IMG/VR virus record: IMGVR_UViG_3300002301_000012
Coordinates: 30,041 to 94,040 of that record
Strand: one strand, 5' to 3'
Length of the DNA: 64,000 nucleotides
DNA from: a virus
Made by a program: the position numbers and the translations under genes. Below, piece by piece: positions 2,036 through 30,904 of the stretch (positions within the stretch are counted from its first letter, which is position 1; the number at the start of each line of letters is the position of its first letter). The notes below the pieces were generated by a model that did no database searches, had not been told where the DNA came from, and saw nothing but the letters and a program-made list of their open reading frames with translations.

Positions 2036-2451
2036 TATGCGACCTCAGATATCTGCCTCGGTGCGTCCACATCAACTCCGAGCACTTCCATTTTGTTGGT
2101 GACAATACTGAGCGCTGCACAAAGGTTGAGGAAGTGCTGCCGACCGAAGTTGTCCAGCCTGCACCCGCGATTGTAAGCGTCGATAATGGCGCGGTCAAGG
2201 CGCTTGTAGATCGAATGCAAAGCCAGTCTGCCTTCGATAATGGCGTCGGCACTCATTGTCCAGCCGCAGGTCATGCTGTGGCCTTCATTGGCGTCGTTCT
2301 CGCAGTGGCATTCGGCGGAACTATAGTGGTATCCGGCAGCCATCAGAAAGGCGTCATGGGCACCGCCGAAGTCCAGTCCTTCGTTCTGCGCAGCCAGCCC
2401 GATCTTATAGGCTTCCCGCGCTTCGTCGCGTGTTACAAAAATGGTCTTCAT
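2035..2451 (-). CDS. Hypothetical protein
   Basis: 138-aa ORF, GGAG RBS, directly downstream of the promoter at 2502-2529. Confidence 0.7.
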   Translation of the reverse strand: MKTIFVTRDEAREAYKIGLAAQNEGLDFGGAHDAFLMAAGYHYSSAECHCENDANEGHSMTCGWTMSADAIIEGRLALHSIYKRLDRAIIDAYNRGCRLDNFGRQHFLNLCAALSIVTNKMEVLGVDVDAPRQISEVA

Positions 2452-2501
2452 GCTGTTCTCCTTGAGGCTTGGTTAGTGCCTCTGATCTATTGATCAACTT
2501 C

Positions 2502-2529
2502 AGTATACGCCAGTTTTCGGCGAATGCAA
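2502..2529 (-). promoter_or_regulatory. sigma70-like promoter TTGCAT-N16-TATACT
   Basis: Read directly on the minus strand in an intergenic gap. Confidence 0.6.
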
Positions 2530-2745
2530 GCGGAAAATAAAAAAAGATCAGTCTGTGGCTGTGTCGCTCAGAGATACCTCCAGTCCGGATATCAGGCCAC
2601 CACAGAACGGGCAGCACCTGGCACAAAGAAGTTGCGAACCGTTGACTACATGGCAAGGCAGGTCGGCCGTTCCGGTGCATCGTCCGCAGGTCTCGCATGG
2701 CGCAGCCACCGCAAGAACGATCTGATGGTCCGGTGGCACCAGCAT

Positions 2746-2910
2746 TTACCGGATGTAGATCGCAGCCAGCGTCAGTGCTGCAATAATCATTCCACCTATA
2801 ACGACCACGGCAAAGAATACGCCAGTCGACGTCAGGAACCGCTTGTGATGGCCGTCGCGGCAGAGGCGGCTTTCATGGCTCAGTGGTGGAAACTGCCGAA
2901 TAATGCTCAT
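2746..2910 (-). CDS. Small membrane protein (MSIIRQFPP...; one C-terminal TM helix)
   Basis: C-terminal part of ORF 2746..3087, with hydrophobic stretch VFFAVVVIGGMIIAALTLAAIYI. Confidence 0.55.
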   Translation of the reverse strand: MSIIRQFPPLSHESRLCRDGHHKRFLTSTGVFFAVVVIGGMIIAALTLAAIYIR

Positions 2911-2917
2911 ATATAGT

Positions 2918-3265
2918 TCACGATCTCCCTGTTTCTGCTGTATATCGCTCGTTGGCCTTCGCGATCTCTGCTTCGATGCTGATTCCCCAACACGCTTCGA
3001 ACTGGTCCTTCCCGATCCGTTCAATCGAAAAGTTTCCAGCTTCGTGAAGGTGATACTTTGCCTCCAGCCGGATGGTTCTCCTGTCATCCTTTGGACTGCC
3101 GCAAAAACGAACGTGATGCGTGGTCGCAGGCAGCTTGCCGGATATGATGCACGGCTGCCTTGCCATCCAAGCTAGGTAAGCCTTGTCGATCAGTCTGCCT
3201 CTGCGCGGCTTCGAACGCTTCTGGCTGATCGGTTTGGTCGCTCGTGGAAGTGGAGTGCGCTTCAT
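2918..3265 (-). CDS. DUF968/Ref-like HNH-type nuclease
   Basis: MKRTPL...YLAWMARQPCIISG..ATTHHVR...DDRRTIRL pattern. ATGA overlap with the upstream methylase. The second CxxH is degenerate. Confidence 0.6.
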   Translation of the reverse strand: MKRTPLPRATKPISQKRSKPRRGRLIDKAYLAWMARQPCIISGKLPATTHHVRFCGSPKDDRRTIRLEAKYHLHEAGNFSIERIGKDQFEACWGISIEAEIAKANERYTAETGRS

Positions 3266-18680: not shown

Positions 18681-21600
18681 ATGGCCAACTTCCAGGTACC
18701 AGAAGGCGCAAAGCGTCTTGGACCGATCAATGCTTTGATCGGAACGCAACCAACACAAGTCGCTGGTGTTTCGCCGTCGTTCTGGTTTTCTCCTCTTCAG
18801 CCTGTAACGCCAACAGCGCCATCCGATTACAAACCTCGCCAGTGGGGCTATCAACCTGGTGCCAACCTCATTTGGCAGCCGAAGTCGGACGAAGGCTACG
18901 GTTACGATCTGCTGCGTCAACTGTCTTTGTCTTGGGATCTTCTTCGCATGGCGCTGGAGATGAAAAAGGACGAAATCGGAGATGTCGAGTTCGAACTTCG
19001 GCTGAAGCGACAGGACAACGAGAAGCAGGCAGACTACAAAAACAGGACGCTGAAAGGCGCGAAAGAACTGCAAGACCTTAAGCAGTTCTGGGCCAAGCCG
19101 GATGGTTTCAATACGTTCCGGCAGTGGCTTCGTATGCTATCCGAAGATCTTCTGGTCTGCGATGCCGTAGCCTGCTATCTTCCGCGCGACAACAAAGGCA
19201 AAGTCGCGATGGTCATGCCGACTGACGGCGCATCGTGGAACAGGCTGCTCACCGATCAGGGAATCACTCCTCGCGATCCAACCAGCGCTGCATACCAACA
19301 GGTTTGTTACGGCTTCCCTGCATGGGATGGTACAACGCAGGACGTCGTGTTCAGTATGCAGAACCCGACAACATACCGGCGCTATGGGTACTCCCGCGTT
19401 GAAAGATGCCTGACAACAGTGGCCTTCGGTATTCGTCGTCAGATGTTCCAGATTGCGGAGTACTGCTATTCATCCGACACTGAGGTACTGACAAGCCGTG
19501 GTTGGCTGAAGTGGCCTGATGTCACCATGGACGATACATTTGCAACGCGGCGCATGGAAAGTGGCGAGTTTGAATGGCAGAAGGCTGAAGGTTACATTCG
19601 GAAACAGTTCAACGGTAATTTGATCCGTTTCAAAAATGTAAGCCTTGACATTTTGGTGACGCCAAACCACAGGATGCTCGTTGGTGACCTGCCCGGCAGA
19701 TACCAGCGCGGTTGTCCTACAGCAAAAGTTCCTCGCATCAAAGAGTGTTTAGTCGAAGCTTCCAATTTGGCTCTTCAGAGAGCGTTGTCAGGCCCGAACA
19801 TTTCGGCGTGGATTCCACAGGTTTCCGAATGGAATGGCGGCGTCCGTATCGAAGACAAGGTGTGGTTGTCTCCGAACAACAAAGAGATAACCGTTCGCAT
19901 GACAGGTGATCAGTACTGTGCCTTCATGGGCATGTACTTGGCAGAGGGATGCGTTGGCGGCAGCGAAAAACCTACACTTGTTCATATCTGCCAGCCAAAA
20001 GACAAAAAAGGAATCCATCAGATTTTCAGTGACATGTTGTCTGAGATCTTTGGTGCAGACGTACACCACGACGGAAAGATGTTTTCATGGTCACGAAAAT
20101 CATTGGCCTTGTACCTTCGGCAATTCGGGCTAGCAAATGAAAAGTTCATACCTGAAGAGATTAAGAACGCGCCCAAAGATCAATTACAGATATTCTGGCG
20201 ATACTACGCATTGGGTGATGGCGAATCGGCGACTGCTATCGGCGAAAAGAAACGTTCTCAGCAGGTATTCACTGTTAGTAAAAAACTGTCTGACGATCTG
20301 ACGGAAGTTGTGCAAAAAATAGGTTTGCGCCCAAATGTCGGTGTTCGCGCTGCGGGCAAAGCCTTTTTCGGTAAACCAGGACTGGGACGTGAAATAAACG
20401 CTAGTGAAGGCTATACGATAACTGCGACCGACCAGCCATGCACAAGAAATTGGGATGTTGAATTTGTCCCTTACGATGGTGAAGTGTTCTGCGTATCGGT
20501 GCCGAACCACACGTTGTATGTTCGGCGCAATGGGAAACATGCGTGGTGCGGGAACACGGCCGGCAATATACCGGAAGCGTTTTTGTTCATGCCTTCGGAC
20601 ATTCCACCGCAGCGACTGAAGGAGTTTCAGGATTACATCGATTCGATCCTAAGCGGTAATCTTGCGGAGCGTCGCAAGATCCGTATGATGCCTGGATTCG
20701 GCGACAGCGGCAAACCGAACATCGTGTTCCCGAAGGAAGCGCTGCTCAAAGATGAACTGGACGTGTGGTTGGCGCAGCTGGTTTGTGCGATTGTCGGCGT
20801 GAGTGCGCAGCCGTTCCTCAAAATGGTGAATCGCGCAAGTTCAGAAGAAGCGAACGACGCAGCCCGCGAAAAGTGGCTGAAGCCTGATGTCGATTTCTTT
20901 TGCGAGTACATTAATACCTGCCTTGAGCGCATGGGAATGGATCAGTACGAAATAGCTGCGAAGGCGCAGCGCGATACCGATCCACTGAAGCAGGCGCAGG
21001 CAGATGCGGCGGTGTGGGGTAAGGTTTACACGCCGAACGAACTTCGCGAGCAGCGCGGAGAAGATCCTGTGGAAGGCAAGAACGCAAACCGGCTCGGTGT
21101 ACTCAGTCCGATGAACGGTTTCATGCCACTCGATCCTGATGATGACGATCTGGCTTTGATGCAGCAAATGAAGGCTACTCCTCCCAAACCTGACGGAAGT
21201 GGTGGAGGTGGAGGTTCGCCGGCACCGAACGGCGGCGGTAGCGGTGGCAGCCCGAAGCCGAAGACTAAACCATCTGCAAAGAAATCGTTGGCAGCAACGT
21301 GGGATCTTGAAAAAGATCACAAGTACGGATGTATCATGGTTCCAATCGATCCAGCGTCCGAAGCCGGTCTTCGCATGAAAGCAATGAGGGATGCAATACC
21401 AGATGCAGACCTGATGGAAGGCAACGGAACCTCGCGCGAGGAAGAACCGCATGTCACTGTGCGATACGGGATCAAGGACGGCGGCGAAGGTCTGCCGGAA
21501 TACCTGACTGGCCTTGCACCATTCACGCTGAAGTTCGGTAAAACAATGGCATTTGCGCCTTCTGAACAGTCTGATGGCGCGGCTCCGCTGGTGGTTCAGG

Positions 21601-23873
21601 TTGATTCGCCTGAGTTGCACGCAGTTAACGCACAGTTGGCACAGGAAGCGACGTTCAAAGAGGCTACATTCGACTACCATCCACACGCGACGCTGGCATA
21701 CGTCGCGCCTGAACGCGCACAGCGGTACGTTGACGACGACTATCTGGACGGCGTGGAATATCCAGTGCGGTCCATTGTGATTACAATGCCAGATGGAAGT
21801 TCGCAGGAAATCATGCTGACAGGCGGATTCGCAGCACCTGCGAAGTTCAGCGGAAGCGCTGCGCTGCGGCCAGCGTCATCGCGCATCAAAAATAAAAATA
21901 AAAAACCGACGAAAGGCGTCACGCCTCCACCGATAGACCTATCGGACAGCACACAGATCGATTCCGGTTATCGCAGCAGTCCAGGTGCAACGCAGTCAAG
22001 TACTGTAGCAGTCGAGGACGGTGGCCAAGTGGAGCCGGGAGGCGTGGACGAAAACAATCCGGCTGAAGATCCACCACGCGCAGATCACAAACCAATGCAG
22101 CGAACGGTCCATGCGTTCTTTAAGGCGCAGGCGGCCGCTGCTTTCGACCGACTTAAGCGGATCGGTGAACTTCACAAGGTCATCAAGGCGTCAGATGATG
22201 GCGATGATCAGGACGATGATGCTGAGCGCATCGGCGAAGCAGAACTGCTGTCCGCTGCGAATGACATAAACTGGCGCGAACTGATACCACAGGTTCTGGC
22301 GCATCTGCAAGAGGCTGGCAACTTCGGTGTTGTGAACGGTCTGCATCGCGCGGCAGTGGCCGGTGTCGGTGAAACGTCGGCTTCCATCGGACCAGCACAA
22401 ACGCTTGCTGCTGAATACGCTAAGGACCGCGCTGCCGAAATGGTCGGCATGAAATGGGTCGACGGCGAACTGGTCGAAAATCCGAACGCAATGTGGGCTA
22501 TCAGCGACACAACGCGAGACCAGTTGCGTGAAATAATCGCGCAGGCACTATCGGAAGAAACGCCGATTGACGTGCTTGCCGAACGTATCCGCGATGCTGG
22601 TTCGTTTTCTGAATCGCGTGCGGAGACTATCGCCAATACTGAGATCGCAACGGCACAGGAGAAAGGCGTTACTGGCTCGTGGAAGGCTACAGGAGCAGTT
22701 GAGAAGGTGCGCTGGTCTCCATCGTCGCTCGGGCCATGTCCGGAGTGTCTGGACAACGTTTTGGCAGGTTCAATACCGTTTGGAGATACTTTCCCCACTG
22801 GTGTATTAGCTCCTCCGAACCATCCGAACTGCTTCGCTGGTGATGCAGTCGTATCGGCCAGCGGAGTTTCGGTAGCGTACAGTCGTTGGTTTGAAGGGGA
22901 AGTCATCATCCTGCGAGTCTCTGGCGCACCAGACATTACCGTCACGCCAAATCACCCGATACTGACGCAACGTGGATGGGTCGCTGCTGGTGATTTGGAA
23001 CTCACGGATAAGGTCTTGCAGTGCGTTGATCCAAATCTGGCTGTCTCCCTGATGAACCCAGACGATAATCACATGGAAACCGGCATCCAGGAGATAGCGC
23101 ACACGCTTGGGATGTCGCACAGCGTGTTGTTCAGTATTGTGCCAACCTCCACCGAAGACTTCCACGGCGATGGAATCGCCAACGGCAAAGTCGATATTGT
23201 AGGCACCGCAGGCGCGCTGTCTTGTGACCAGTCCGATAGAATTCAGCACAGAGAAAACACGCTGCTCTGCGCTCTGCATGAGCGGGGGCTTTTGCTGAAT
23301 AGCGATTGCGTGCATCCGTTTGGTATCTTCGGGGACGATTCTTCCGCGACTGGCAGCATGAGCAGCAGCGGTCTGATGAAGTCGTTGGTCTTTGGTCAGT
23401 TGTCCCATGCGGACAATGGCGGCTTCATGGGTTCCACGGACCATCAAACCAGAACGCTTGAAAGCTTTGATGATCATTGTATGGTGGGTGTCATGCCTTT
23501 TCCCGATAGACAAAGCAGACTCACCAGCCAAGTAGCTTGTGTGCATAGCCATCAATTCGGGCAGCGTGAATTTGCAGTCTCTTCCTTTGCGCATCGGATC
23601 GCCCGGTTGGCGAAGAGAGATTCCAGAACGAATCAAGTTAAGACGAACCATACCGTAACCAAGCTGGTATCGCGCACAAATAGTCTGGAGCGTGTCGCCA
23701 GCCTGATACGCTTTGCAGATGTCGTCAAGTTGTGGAAGAATCGTTTTGCGGGGCATGTGTTTAACCTCAGTACAGATACCGGCACGTATTTTGCTAACAC
23801 TATACTTGCACACAACTGTCGGTGTGCTTTGATTATCACAAAGGTTCGCGGTAAAGAGGAGAAAGCAGCATGA
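18681..23873 (+). CDS. Portal / 2H-phosphoesterase / MuF (gpF-like head morphogenesis) polyprotein containing two inteins
   Basis: Portal motifs in the N-terminal part; HVTV and HATL 2H motifs; MuF motifs SRAETIANTE...CPEC...PPNHPN|CRC; two Hint domains. Confidence 0.9.
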   Translation: MANFQVPEGAKRLGPINALIGTQPTQVAGVSPSFWFSPLQPVTPTAPSDYKPRQWGYQPGANLIWQPKSDEGYGYDLLRQLSLSWDLLRMALEMKKDEIGDVEFELRLKRQDNEKQADYKNRTLKGAKELQDLKQFWAKPDGFNTFRQWLRMLSEDLLVCDAVACYLPRDNKGKVAMVMPTDGASWNRLLTDQGITPRDPTSAAYQQVCYGFPAWDGTTQDVVFSMQNPTTYRRYGYSRVERCLTTVAFGIRRQMFQIAEYCYSSDTEVLTSRGWLKWPDVTMDDTFATRRMESGEFEWQKAEGYIRKQFNGNLIRFKNVSLDILVTPNHRMLVGDLPGRYQRGCPTAKVPRIKECLVEASNLALQRALSGPNISAWIPQVSEWNGGVRIEDKVWLSPNNKEITVRMTGDQYCAFMGMYLAEGCVGGSEKPTLVHICQPKDKKGIHQIFSDMLSEIFGADVHHDGKMFSWSRKSLALYLRQFGLANEKFIPEEIKNAPKDQLQIFWRYYALGDGESATAIGEKKRSQQVFTVSKKLSDDLTEVVQKIGLRPNVGVRAAGKAFFGKPGLGREINASEGYTITATDQPCTRNWDVEFVPYDGEVFCVSVPNHTLYVRRNGKHAWCGNTAGNIPEAFLFMPSDIPPQRLKEFQDYIDSILSGNLAERRKIRMMPGFGDSGKPNIVFPKEALLKDELDVWLAQLVCAIVGVSAQPFLKMVNRASSEEANDAAREKWLKPDVDFFCEYINTCLERMGMDQYEIAAKAQRDTDPLKQAQADAAVWGKVYTPNELREQRGEDPVEGKNANRLGVLSPMNGFMPLDPDDDDLALMQQMKATPPKPDGSGGGGGSPAPNGGGSGGSPKPKTKPSAKKSLAATWDLEKDHKYGCIMVPIDPASEAGLRMKAMRDAIPDADLMEGNGTSREEEPHVTVRYGIKDGGEGLPEYLTGLAPFTLKFGKTMAFAPSEQSDGAAPLVVQVDSPELHAVNAQLAQEATFKEATFDYHPHATLAYVAPERAQRYVDDDYLDGVEYPVRSIVITMPDGSSQEIMLTGGFAAPAKFSGSAALRPASSRIKNKNKKPTKGVTPPPIDLSDSTQIDSGYRSSPGATQSSTVAVEDGGQVEPGGVDENNPAEDPPRADHKPMQRTVHAFFKAQAAAAFDRLKRIGELHKVIKASDDGDDQDDDAERIGEAELLSAANDINWRELIPQVLAHLQEAGNFGVVNGLHRAAVAGVGETSASIGPAQTLAAEYAKDRAAEMVGMKWVDGELVENPNAMWAISDTTRDQLREIIAQALSEETPIDVLAERIRDAGSFSESRAETIANTEIATAQEKGVTGSWKATGAVEKVRWSPSSLGPCPECLDNVLAGSIPFGDTFPTGVLAPPNHPNCFAGDAVVSASGVSVAYSRWFEGEVIILRVSGAPDITVTPNHPILTQRGWVAAGDLELTDKVLQCVDPNLAVSLMNPDDNHMETGIQEIAHTLGMSHSVLFSIVPTSTEDFHGDGIANGKVDIVGTAGALSCDQSDRIQHRENTLLCALHERGLLLNSDCVHPFGIFGDDSSATGSMSSSGLMKSLVFGQLSHADNGGFMGSTDHQTRTLESFDDHCMVGVMPFPDRQSRLTSQVACVHSHQFGQREFAVSSFAHRIARLAKRDSRTNQVKTNHTVTKLVSRTNSLERVASLIRFADVVKLWKNRFAGHVFNLSTDTGTYFANTILAHNCRCALIITKVRGKEEKAA
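19464..20555 (+). mobile_element. Intein 1 (364 aa) with LAGLIDADG homing endonuclease, in the portal domain
   Basis: Y|CYSSDTEVLT...VTPNHRM...FMGMYLAEG...YALGDG...YDGEVFCVSVPNHTLYVRRNGKHAWCGN|T. Confidence 0.93.
21320..21830 (+). other. 2H phosphoesterase domain, Acb1/T4 gp57B-like
   Basis: EEPHVTVRYG (His at 21450) and DYHPHATLAY (His at 21684), flanked by low-complexity linkers. Confidence 0.8.
22806..23756 (-). CDS. Antisense HTH-repeat + DUF559/Vsr-like endonuclease nested in intein 2
   Basis: GAGGT RBS before the ATG at 23756. Two HTH units (Y.AG.S/T...I..R.......I/V...L.RSG...R), then AEQR...Q..G.YNIDF...IAVEVFGGGWH...LLDAGFHVIIVW. Confidence 0.8.
   Translation of the reverse strand: MPRKTILPQLDDICKAYQAGDTLQTICARYQLGYGMVRLNLIRSGISLRQPGDPMRKGRDCKFTLPELMAMHTSYLAGESALSIGKRHDTHHTMIIKAFKRSGLMVRGTHEAAIVRMGQLTKDQRLHQTAAAHAASRGRIVPEDTKRMHAIAIQQKPPLMQSAEQRVFSVLNSIGLVTRQRACGAYNIDFAVGDSIAVEVFGGGWHNTEQHAVRHPKRVRYLLDAGFHVIIVWVHQGDSQIWINALQDLIREFQITSSDPSTLRQYRVIWRDGNVWCARDSQDDDFPFKPTTVRYRNSAGRYDCITSEAVRMVRRS
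22830..23816 (+). mobile_element. Intein 2 (329 aa) in the MuF HPNCRC motif
   Basis: HPN|CFAGDAVV...VTPNHPILTQRGWVAAGDL...FAGHVFNLSTDTGTYFANTILAHN|CRC. Confidence 0.92.
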
Positions 23874-25150: not shown

Positions 25151-25378
25151 TCACGAGCAGTCGTTCCTTTCCTTCCACATTGCTTCGAGATCAGCCTGCT
25201 GGCGAACGTAATACAGACAATCTGAAACGTGCCGGTGCGATACGTACATACCCATATGGCGGCGTGGTTGGTCGCAAGTAATTGGTCCGCGACAGTCGCC
25301 GCAGCGCACGGTCAGCGCTTCGTTTATCTCTTCGATGGTGAACGTGTTATCTGATGTGACGGTTTCGCGAAGACTCAT
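25151..25378 (-). CDS. Small Zn-binding protein
   Basis: CGDC...H...C. Part of a short inverted operon (24972-25576). Confidence 0.5.
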   Translation of the reverse strand: MSLRETVTSDNTFTIEEINEALTVRCGDCRGPITCDQPRRHMGMYVSHRHVSDCLYYVRQQADLEAMWKERNDCS

Positions 25379-25402
25379 GGCTGAGGCACATCCTTTCGTG
25401 TC

Positions 25403-25576
25403 TTACGCTTGCTGTGGAACGTCCCTGGGGTTGATGCGCCACAATCTGCCGATTTTGAATCCTCGAAGTTTCTTTGTTCGAAGGTGCGTCAGCACTGTCG
25501 ATTCGCTGAGTCCAGTGATGGTGGCCACCTCCTTGGCGCTCAGTAGTCTATGAAGGTCTTTATCTGTTGTAGCCAT
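25403..25576 (-). CDS. Excisionase-family (HTH_17) DNA-binding protein, 57 aa
   Basis: Hand translation LLSAKEVATITGLSESTVLTHLRTKKLRGFKIGRLWRI. Confidence 0.8.
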   Translation of the reverse strand: MATTDKDLHRLLSAKEVATITGLSESTVLTHLRTKKLRGFKIGRLWRINPRDVPQQA

Positions 25577-25693
25577 TTGCACTTATTCATAACACAACAT
25601 TAGCGCAATTCGCCACTCTTCGTTTGTTCATGGCAATAGTGCCGGATCTTGCTGTGGCGAATCGACATAAGCCTTTGCAATGATTACGAACGA

Positions 25694-29554: not shown

Positions 29555-30904
29555 ATGTCAGTCAATCCAACACTCGCAAGCGAACTGGCTCAGGTATCGT
29601 CGCCAGGAACGTCGTACACAGTCAGTCAGCAGGCGCTGCTGTCGACCATCGAAAACCACATCGCCAACGATATCGACCCGTTCGCTCTCGTTGCAAATCC
29701 GGCCAACTCGCAATCTGTTCTTGGCGCGCGTCTTCGCCTTAATGCGATGACCGCGCCGGTTGTAACGATCACTCCGGTCGGTGGCGCTGCCGGATCGCAA
29801 ACGTACGTTGTGGTCGCAAAAATCAATTTGGCGAATCTTCTGCCAAGTGCGTCGGCGTCGACATCGACCGGTCCAACTACGCTGTCTGCGACCACATACA
29901 ACACGCTTACATGGCCTGTAGTCAACGGTGCCACGCAGTACGATGTGTACCGTACCTCGGGTGGTGCAACTCAAGGTCTCATCGCAGCCAATCTGACGTT
30001 CGCTTCTGGCGTGTCGCCGTCGTACAACGACATCGGCACAGCAGGAGACACAACCTCTGCTCCGACAATGACTGCTTTGTTCGCGTCCGCGACATTCGCG
30101 GATCTGAACTCCATCGGCATCGCAACGCCAACTCTGGTGTCCTCTGCTGTGATTGGCACAGCCGGATCGACCACATGGACCTATGTCGTGGTTGCCGATT
30201 CTTACGTCGGTAGCGCGGCAGCTGGTTCAACCTCGGTGACAACCGGTATCGCGACAATGGTCGCGGGCACCAGTTACAACCAGATCAGCTGGAACTATGT
30301 TGCCGGAGCCTATCAGTATCGGATATTCCGCACTGTCGCAGGCACTTCGCCAAGCACCACAGGACTGATCGGAACTGTGGCGCAAATCGAACAGGCCACG
30401 TTCACATTCAACGACAACGCGCTGGCTGGCACTGCTTACACACCGCCAACCGGCAATACAACCGGTTCTCTGGCCACAGCCTCCAATCTTTATGCGGCTG
30501 GCATCAGCCTTGTCAACGGCACATCGGCGCAGACTGCGGCTGCCGGAACCACACTTACAACCGCAAACCTGTTGTGCAATACGATGCTTCGCTCTGGCGC
30601 CGCCGGCGTCAGTGACGCTACTCCGACCGCTGCCGCTATCGTGGCGGCGCTTGGCGGCGCGGGTGCTGCCAGCGGGACGGTAGGACCGGCTGTCAAGGTC
30701 GGCATGTCGTGGCGCTGGACGATTCGAAACGCCAACTCAGGCACTTTGACTATCACCGCTGGCAGCGGCGTGACTCTGGCTGCGGGAAACACGAACACAA
30801 CGCCAACCGTCAACGCTCACGAATTTCTGATTGTTGTCACCAACGTGACGGCAGGCAGCGAAGCGGTCACGATTTATTCGAACGGTCCGTCCGGAGCGTA
30901 CTAA
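29555..30904 (+). CDS. Head decoration/fibre protein with two FN3-like repeats
   Basis: Repeated TYVVVA...YN..(T/S)W..V.GA.QY..(Y/F)RT..G.I. Follows the capsid gene and precedes a terminator. Confidence 0.7.
   Translation: MSVNPTLASELAQVSSPGTSYTVSQQALLSTIENHIANDIDPFALVANPANSQSVLGARLRLNAMTAPVVTITPVGGAAGSQTYVVVAKINLANLLPSASASTSTGPTTLSATTYNTLTWPVVNGATQYDVYRTSGGATQGLIAANLTFASGVSPSYNDIGTAGDTTSAPTMTALFASATFADLNSIGIATPTLVSSAVIGTAGSTTWTYVVVADSYVGSAAAGSTSVTTGIATMVAGTSYNQISWNYVAGAYQYRIFRTVAGTSPSTTGLIGTVAQIEQATFTFNDNALAGTAYTPPTGNTTGSLATASNLYAAGISLVNGTSAQTAAAGTTLTTANLLCNTMLRSGAAGVSDATPTAAAIVAALGGAGAASGTVGPAVKVGMSWRWTIRNANSGTLTITAGSGVTLAAGNTNTTPTVNAHEFLIVVTNVTAGSEAVTIYSNGPSGAY

Follow-up and report, generated by a model that had tools for sequence, protein, structure and literature searches.

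An intein in the head gene of an uncultivated virus

The element described here lies in a 64,000-nucleotide (nt) window of DNA, positions 30,041 to 94,040 of the IMG/VR record IMGVR_UViG_3300002301_000012, a 94-kb record of an uncultivated virus. Coordinates below are those of the window. A long plus-strand open reading frame (ORF) with a MuF (head morphogenesis) domain carries an intein in that domain, intein 2, and the opposite strand of this intein holds a second gene, most probably for a homing endonuclease. Residues 1281-1384 of the host ORF match Pfam Phage_Mu_F with an expectation value (E) of 4.9e-6, at 27.7 bits slightly below the cut-off of 29.6, and the ORF matches a PHROG head protein at 1.7e-23. 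The features of the plus strand are listed below, with slashes marking intein junctions and model confidence given as pLDDT (predicted local distance difference test).

18681-23873, plus strand: host ORF of 1730 amino acids (aa), with portal, 2'-5' RNA ligase-like (2H) and MuF domains in one frame (Pfam)
22821-22829, plus strand: N-extein flank His-Pro-Asn, the HPN of the MuF motif HPN/CRC and left half of the putative homing site, from sequence and translation; related loci use the same HPxC site
22830-23816, plus strand: intein 2, 329 aa, with Cys1, TPNH (block B), HVFNLS (block F) and AHN, then Cys+1, from sequence and translation
22830-23141, plus strand: HINT N-terminal subdomain, intein residues 1 to ~104; pLDDT 83-96 for residues 1-90 and 68 for residues 91-100
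23142-23681, plus strand: stop-free spacer of ~180 aa, the 'shadow' of the antisense gene, without fold or family; pLDDT 26-47
23682-23816, plus strand: HINT C-terminal subdomain with blocks F and G and the terminal His-Asn; pLDDT 89-95
23817-23819, plus strand: Cys+1 of the C-extein, first residue of CRC, from sequence

The host frame enters the intein at HPN/CFAGD (22830) and leaves it at AHN/CRC (23816/23817). Block B (TPNH) occupies intein residues 39-42 and the terminal AHN residues 327-329, while the two nucleophiles that define a class 1 type intein are Cys1 at 22830-22832 and Cys+1 at 23817-23819. The structure model has a HINT fold and is confident for residues 1 to ~100 and 285-329 only. 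By its sequence, intein 2 is thus a contiguous, functional-looking intein of class 1 type that would be expected to splice, and the original prediction, made from the letters of the window, had placed Cys1, TPNH and the HN/C junction at this MuF site correctly.

Two other readings of the plus strand were considered and ruled out. The interior could have been an in-frame endonuclease; its pLDDT of 26-47 and the lack of any endonuclease match, or of any Pfam family for the 179-aa interior at 23142-23678, speak against this, as the original prediction had anticipated. The insert could also have been a split intein in a fractured gene, but the host frame runs uninterrupted through it, here and in 84 of 84 related loci.

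A Vsr-like nuclease on the opposite strand

In exact codon register with the intein, the minus strand is open from 23813 to the TAA at 22806-22808, with a likely ATG start at 23754-23756. The ORF extends 24 nt beyond the intein into the N-extein, and the last ~60 residues of its product lie antisense to the N-terminal splicing blocks. Its parts are as follows.

22806-23756, minus strand: predicted gene for an antisense homing endonuclease, 316 aa followed by TAA, codon-aligned with the intein; assigned by homology, fold and selection
23628-23729, minus strand: helix-turn-helix (HTH) unit 1, residues 10-43; three helices in the AlphaFold2 model, pLDDT 84-90; Pfam HTH_58, E 0.0012
23454-23564, minus strand: HTH unit 2, residues 65-101, from profile search and AlphaFold2 model; Y75 and G78 invariant in the family alignment
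23292-23432, minus strand: helical linker, residues 109-155, with a conserved AAAHAA.RGR, from alignment and AlphaFold2 model
22989-23285, minus strand: Vsr-like (EDxHD-type) nuclease domain, residues 158-256, from profile, fold and aligned catalytic residues
22809-22988, minus strand: C-terminal tail, residues 257-316, antisense to intein blocks A-B; pLDDT 41-63

Profile search and fold agree on two HTH units followed by a Vsr/DUF559-like nuclease, the composition proposed in the original prediction. A 16-member profile matches 2lvs, a protein with two HTH units (E 2.7e-8), and 3r3p, the catalytic domain of the homing endonuclease I-Bth0305I (E 3.9e-5). The AlphaFold2 model of the antisense protein (pLDDT 78.7) consists of two three-helix units, a helical linker and an alpha/beta domain. 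Foldseek returned nothing at E<=0.001 for the whole three-domain model, and a second comparison, with VIA-align, resolved the nuclease domain as a Vsr-type fold; the helical linker (residues 109-155) has no match in the PDB.

Three residues of the antisense protein, D189 (23190-23192), E199 (23160-23162) and H206 (23139-23141), align with D196, E206 and H213 of I-Bth0305I; the residue mapping covers these three letters of the composite EDxHD motif. D189 and H206 correspond to the two positions mutated to alanine in the 3r3p construct (D196A, H213A), and E199 to Glu206. In the family alignment D189 and E199 are invariant and H206 is nearly so. The protein scores 25.1 bits against PF18741 (REase_MTES_1575; cut-off 38.2) and 15.3 against PF04480 (DUF559; cut-off 20.6). 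Since many of its homologues carry PF18741, it is best described as a distant relative of that family and not a scored member. Taken together, models and profiles describe a protein of two HTH DNA-binding units, a linker and a Vsr-like nuclease domain with the catalytic Asp, Glu and His in place.

Frame-specific selection

The openness of the antisense frame across the intein, on which the original prediction had drawn, is real but weak as evidence on its own, and it was discarded in that role. Codons that place a stop on the aligned antisense strand (TTA, CTA and TCA) make up only 1.2% of the host ORF, so that 335 open antisense codons have a probability of ~0.016. The same host ORF also contains a second codon-aligned antisense-open run of 344 codons from stop to stop, with a 281-aa ORF at 20841-21686 (minus strand) that shows neither a Pfam family nor protein features. 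As this control shows, codon usage by itself produces long antisense-open runs in this gene, and the case for an antisense gene stands on homology, fold and substitution pattern.

Conservation was scored in both frames over a codon alignment of 67 distinct loci, with an outcome that did not depend on which frame had guided the alignment. In the extein, at 22830-23018 and at 23739-23816, conservation is higher in the plus frame; at 23019-23738 it is higher in the minus frame, except for the bin 23154-23198 in the nuclease core, where both are high. Over 23142-23681 the BLOSUM score is ~0.1-0.3 in the plus frame versus 0.6-2.0 in the minus frame. Opposite the antisense C-terminal tail (22809-22988), it is the plus frame that is more conserved.

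Substitutions were counted in eight independent pairs of relatives, 69-91% identical, by plus-strand codon position; position 1 of a plus codon is position 3 of the minus codon.

Interior: 640, 260 and 421 substitutions at plus positions 1, 2 and 3; wobble flipped to the minus frame, p 2e-11
HINT N end: 72, 27 and 143
HINT C end: 17, 19 and 74
Extein: 163, 132 and 271

The flip of the wobble position in the interior is present in each of the eight pairs. Purifying selection accordingly follows the pattern that had been predicted: the interior is constrained in the minus frame and the ends in the plus frame. The minus frame is free of stops in all homologues for which the locus was inspected (84 of 84). 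These results bear directly on the idea that the antisense frame is a codon-usage by-product and that the plus-strand interior is the functional part, as a novel endonuclease or a linker domain. The rarity of stop-equivalent codons and the featureless 344-codon run lend that idea some credit. Against it, the wobble position flips, the minus frame has a fold, a family and catalytic residues where the plus-strand interior has none, and the frame stays open throughout the 84 loci; the idea is so improbable that it can practically be set aside.

The two coding regions also overlap in zones where both frames are modelled confidently.

23019-23141: intein residues 64-104 opposite nuclease residues 206-246
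23682-23738: intein residues 285-303 opposite antisense residues 7-25

Substitution rates in these zones are 0.170 and 0.182 per site, among the lowest, compared with 0.26-0.30 in the purely antisense part. In the first zone (0.170 per site) both wobble positions are depressed, and the HINT C-terminal subdomain has rates of 0.082, 0.091 and 0.356 at positions 1, 2 and 3. About 40 codons on the N side and about 20 on the C side appear to be constrained in both frames. The original prediction had regarded the plus-strand interior as a mere 'shadow' of the antisense gene, a picture that fits only about 23142-23681. Long gene overlaps in antisense, with selection demonstrated on both strands, are a rarity in bacteria and phages, and the present family offers a clean and abundant example.

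A further observation concerns 23154-23198, where the plus frame reads a conserved EDFHGDG opposite the AVEVFGGGWH of the nuclease core. Plus-strand His112 and Gly113 are invariant in 27 sequences, fixing the wobble base of a Val and an Ala codon of the minus strand. This hints at a constraint on the plus frame, or on the nucleotides themselves, beyond the minus-frame protein.

A family seemingly confined to one intein

Close homologues of the antisense protein number 59, of which the best matches it at 45% identity over 95% of the length; several bear the name very-short-patch-repair endonuclease in their source records, and the PF18741 assignments mentioned above come from a precomputed table. 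An exhaustive search with residues 1-256 returned 1,516 cluster representatives at E<=0.001, of which 662 remain at E<=1e-10. By tblastn the protein is matched in 117 phage records, from phages of Salmonella (Jerseyviruses), Escherichia, Vibrio, Pseudomonas, Klebsiella, Acinetobacter, Gordonia and others, so that relatives span Gordonia phages and many Proteobacteria phages; IMG/VR holds 524 further matching stretches. No close relative of the present virus was found, the nearest homologue of the antisense protein being ~44-45% identical.

The layout is shared across this range. In each of seven records inspected, the match lies opposite an annotated MuF gene or a gene in the head-morphogenesis position. 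In the 84 related loci, no stop interrupts the codon-aligned antisense frame anywhere in the match, which lies inside the host ORF, and the other two antisense frames are short. Host ORFs in this census are 480-1300 aa long, apart from two loci of 246 and 380 aa that are clipped by contig ends. The insertion site, HPxC/.../C(R)C, is the same in most of 73 distinct loci; in a few, a junction fell outside the cut segment. The tail motif YRVIW.DG of the antisense protein is the mirror image, on the other strand, of the intein's TPNHP, and this block B mirror occurs at the expected distance in 174 of 186 homologues with a recognisable core, as counted with a loose regular expression; most of the other 12 carry variants. 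No free-standing relative was found that would point to a free-standing origin. Going by these sequences, there seem to be hardly any members of the endonuclease family outside this MuF intein.

Annotation has passed the gene by in well over a hundred deposited phage genomes, including those of Salmonella Jerseyviruses. None of the seven annotated records inspected names it as an endonuclease gene. For instance, the annotation of Escherichia phage Snoke marks the intein and has nothing on the opposite strand, and that of Salmonella phage vB_StyS-sam shows there only a 134-aa 'hypothetical protein' fragment. In Gordonia phage Affeca, tblastn gives an antisense match to the Vsr-like protein at 95% coverage in a 1083-aa MuF gene. 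In a 2025 preprint this phage is listed under inteins whose out-of-frame ORF is endonuclease VII-like (Gosselin, Arsenault and Gogarten, bioRxiv 10.1101/2025.01.02.630785); the MuF gene of this phage may hold more than one element, or the intein classes may overlap.

Probable antisense expression signals within the splicing blocks

The ribosome-binding site, the start codon and the -10-like box named in the original prediction (GAGGT, 7 nt, ATG, and TATAGT at 23799-23804) are all in place, and they coincide with positions at which the family conserves antisense signals in synonymous sites.

23764-23768, minus strand: Shine-Dalgarno sequence GAGGT, opposite the Asn-Leu codons of block F and separated by 7 nt from the ATG at 23754-23756
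23799-23804, minus strand: -10-like hexamer TATAGT, opposite the Thr-Ile codons of block G and 42 nt ahead of the start; it lacks both a -35 and a TGn

The block F His codon, read on the other strand, supplies the start codon. Codon choice at this and neighbouring positions of the family is biased as follows, with the frequencies in the extein background and in a HINT control for comparison.

Block F His as CAT: 48 of 61 (extein background 0.34, HINT control 0.24); gives the ATG start
Block F Leu as CTC: 55 of 65 (0.27, 0.375); gives the GAG of GAGGT, 7 nt upstream
Block G Ile as ATA: 26 of 51 (0.12, 0.26); part of the -10 hexamer
Block G Val as GTA: 23 of 33 (0.09, 0.19); part of the -10 hexamer
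Block G Thr as ACA: 11 of 22 (0.10, 0.12); TGn extension upstream of the -10 hexamer

Block G codons yield an antisense TATAAT or TACAAT 45 or 48 nt upstream of the start. A hexamer matching TATAAT at five or all six positions lies 38-52 nt upstream in 44 of 67 loci, where the rare codons ATA, GTA and ACA produce it; a TGn extension is present in 25. Two subfamilies form it through different residues, I-I-T and I-V-S, and the window does so through a third register, T-I. What identifies the hexamer as a -10 element is solely the family-wide codon bias. The Shine-Dalgarno, start and -10 signals are thus conserved at synonymous sites of blocks F and G, suggesting that the minus strand is transcribed.

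These signals also bear on whether the copy in the window is a decaying relic, in which case the family gene would be real, this copy unexpressed or inactive, and the intein a fixed passenger. Such a fate would suit the promoter evidence of the window, a single hexamer with five of six matches, a closest homologue of 44-45% identity, and a virus with no close relatives to show recent mobility. It fits poorly with an intact frame of 316 codons in which all the listed invariant and near-invariant family residues are present, with a canonical Shine-Dalgarno sequence, spacing and ATG, and with a confident model. A relic is very improbable.

Filled and empty sites in Jerseyviruses

Among 348 Jerseyvirus-type records matching the MuF gene of Salmonella phage SGPC, 58 carry the intein. 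Most of the remaining records give a two-piece match that spans exactly 1044 nt, that is, without the 816-nt intein. In SETP13 the empty site reads PPAHPN/CRSS where SGPC holds the intein. Among intein-bearing Jerseyviruses the intein is 95-99% identical and the exteins 85-91%, and pairs rank differently by intein than by extein. This discordance fits horizontal spread. The presence of filled and empty alleles in cultured phages makes homing directly testable.

The Jerseyvirus version of the element, as in SGPC (2423-3238 of locus L001), is shorter, a 272-aa intein in which a single HTH unit was matched. The Jerseyvirus intein is polymorphic and more conserved than its exteins despite having Ala for the presumed general-base His.

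An endonuclease that has lost its homing role could persist in another. The antisense gene might be expressed but domesticated, as a DNA-binding or nicking protein housed in the intein and serving, for example, phage exclusion or regulation. Two HTH units could suit regulation, the Jerseyvirus copies remain open and conserved without the general-base His, and selection is still visible at ~30% identity across phages of Actinobacteria and Proteobacteria, longer than the classic cycle of gain, decay and loss predicts. Domestication is nevertheless improbable, given that the family keeps to a single insertion site in a single host gene, that close relatives have filled and precisely empty sites with discordant intein and extein identities, and that the copy in the window keeps its catalytic residues. 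An active homing endonuclease remains the preferred reading of the antisense gene.

A probable two-strand mobile element

The intein appears to be one half of a two-strand mobile element seated in the conserved HPN/CRC of the phage MuF domain. On the plus strand, the HINT fold is assembled from residues 1 to ~104 and ~285 to 329, joined by an unstructured linker of ~180 aa that is kept free of stops so that the MuF precursor could be translated and spliced. On the minus strand, in the same register, a free-standing homing endonuclease of 316 aa would be expressed from its own signals, written in the splicing blocks; as the original prediction proposed, it may be made separately from the late head protein and perhaps earlier. 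During co-infection, the endonuclease would cut an intein-less MuF allele at or near the HPN/CRC coding sequence, and repair would copy the entire element into the cut allele. Splicing would then take out the linker peptide, leaving the head protein unharmed. That a real antisense homing-endonuclease gene resides inside a functional-looking intein is given a probability of roughly 85%; homing, splicing and the timing of expression, like nuclease activity and its target, are inferred.

Several points weigh against this reading. The Pfam matches of the antisense protein of the window fall under the curated cut-offs, and the substitution tests come from relatives that are 69-91% identical, while the nearest relative of the window copy is only ~44% identical in protein. 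A consensus scan of the minus strand upstream of 23756 found no promoter of sigma-70 type and did not report TATAGT, and the codon-bias counts ignore shared ancestry among the loci. In the Jerseyviruses, the higher identity of the intein could come in part from double coding rather than from recent transfer. Their copies also read GGGWAC versus GGGWH in the window, with Ala in place of the presumed general-base His, so that not every member of the family need be an active nuclease.

On balance, and with little assurance, the intein and its backwards endonuclease are taken to be a single old element whose two strands are obligately coupled. Nearly all of the family (~1,500 clusters) appears to belong to this MuF intein, the -10, Shine-Dalgarno and start signals occupy synonymous positions of blocks G and F, and ~60 codons would each serve two folded domains. 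For the first point, 84 loci had their strand and site checked directly, and the others only through the block B mirror motif. The main text of the 2025 preprint takes up none of the three. Obligate coupling would account for the two having remained together in phages of bacterial phyla far apart.

Relation to known inteins and endonucleases

The original prediction is supported in its reading of the element, but the arrangement is not new. Full inteins with antisense VSR-like endonucleases have been described in actinobacteriophages, with minor capsid proteins listed among the hosts of non-canonical endonucleases (Gosselin, Arsenault and Gogarten, bioRxiv 10.1101/2025.01.02.630785). Those elements share with the present one a contiguous intein, an antisense ORF for a Vsr-like endonuclease and a minor capsid (MuF-like) host protein. 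The layout is therefore already known, and this intein is a further example of it; no other description was found in the literature searched. There are differences, however. The survey covers actinobacteriophages, whereas the present element comes from an uncultivated 94-kb virus with relatives in Gordonia phages and many Proteobacteria phages, and its antisense ORF overlaps both splicing subdomains, with its signals placed within blocks F and G. Promoter, Shine-Dalgarno sequence, start codon and selection by codon position go undiscussed in the preprint's main text. What goes beyond that text is the spread into Proteobacteria phages, the frame-specific substitution pattern and the antisense signals and overlaps in the splicing blocks.

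Antisense ORFs for LAGLIDADG endonucleases have also been noted in the Synechocystis DnaX intein and others (Gorbalenya, 1998; Gogarten et al., 2002; both as cited in bioRxiv 10.1101/2025.01.02.630785). As far as that citation goes, they are alike in having an endonuclease ORF opposite the intein, and differ in nuclease family and host genes.

Another relative is I-Bth0305I, an EDxHD (Vsr-like) homing endonuclease (Taylor et al., 2011, PMC3239194; PDB 3r3p). It has the same type of catalytic fold, with active-site D196, H213 and Glu206 aligned with residues of the antisense protein, and a similar bipartite build of an N-terminal DNA-binding part and a C-terminal nuclease, and it too is tied to a self-splicing element. 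I-Bth0305I differs in being encoded on the sense strand of a group I intron and in having NUMOD-type motifs, whereas the present protein is antisense in an intein and has two HTH units; identity is ~17-20%, over the nuclease domain only.

In fractured genes, a free-standing Vsr-like or GIY-YIG endonuclease gene lies between the halves of a split intein (Dassa et al., 2009, PMC2677866). As here, a Vsr-like endonuclease forms its own gene within an intein, with its own gene-control elements and short coding overlaps with part of the intein. There, however, the host gene is interrupted into two genes, each with an intein half; the present intein is contiguous, since all 84 loci keep the host frame open. 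The element shows how a homing endonuclease can join an intein without fusion, and it bears on the view of intein origins in which splicing came first and the nuclease later.

Neighbouring elements

The host ORF at 18681-23873 holds two inteins, one canonical and one with an antisense endonuclease. The canonical one, intein 1 (19464-20555, plus strand), lies in the portal part and has 364 aa, from Cys1 to HAW-CGN/T; it contains in-frame LAGLIDADG-like motifs and a weak match to Pfam LAGLIDADG_3 (E 0.0036). Two small minus-strand genes (25151-25582) sit within an otherwise plus-strand head module, and the antisense endonuclease lies 1.4 kb downstream of them. One of them encodes an HTH_17 protein (excisionase/AlpA-like, E 4e-10).

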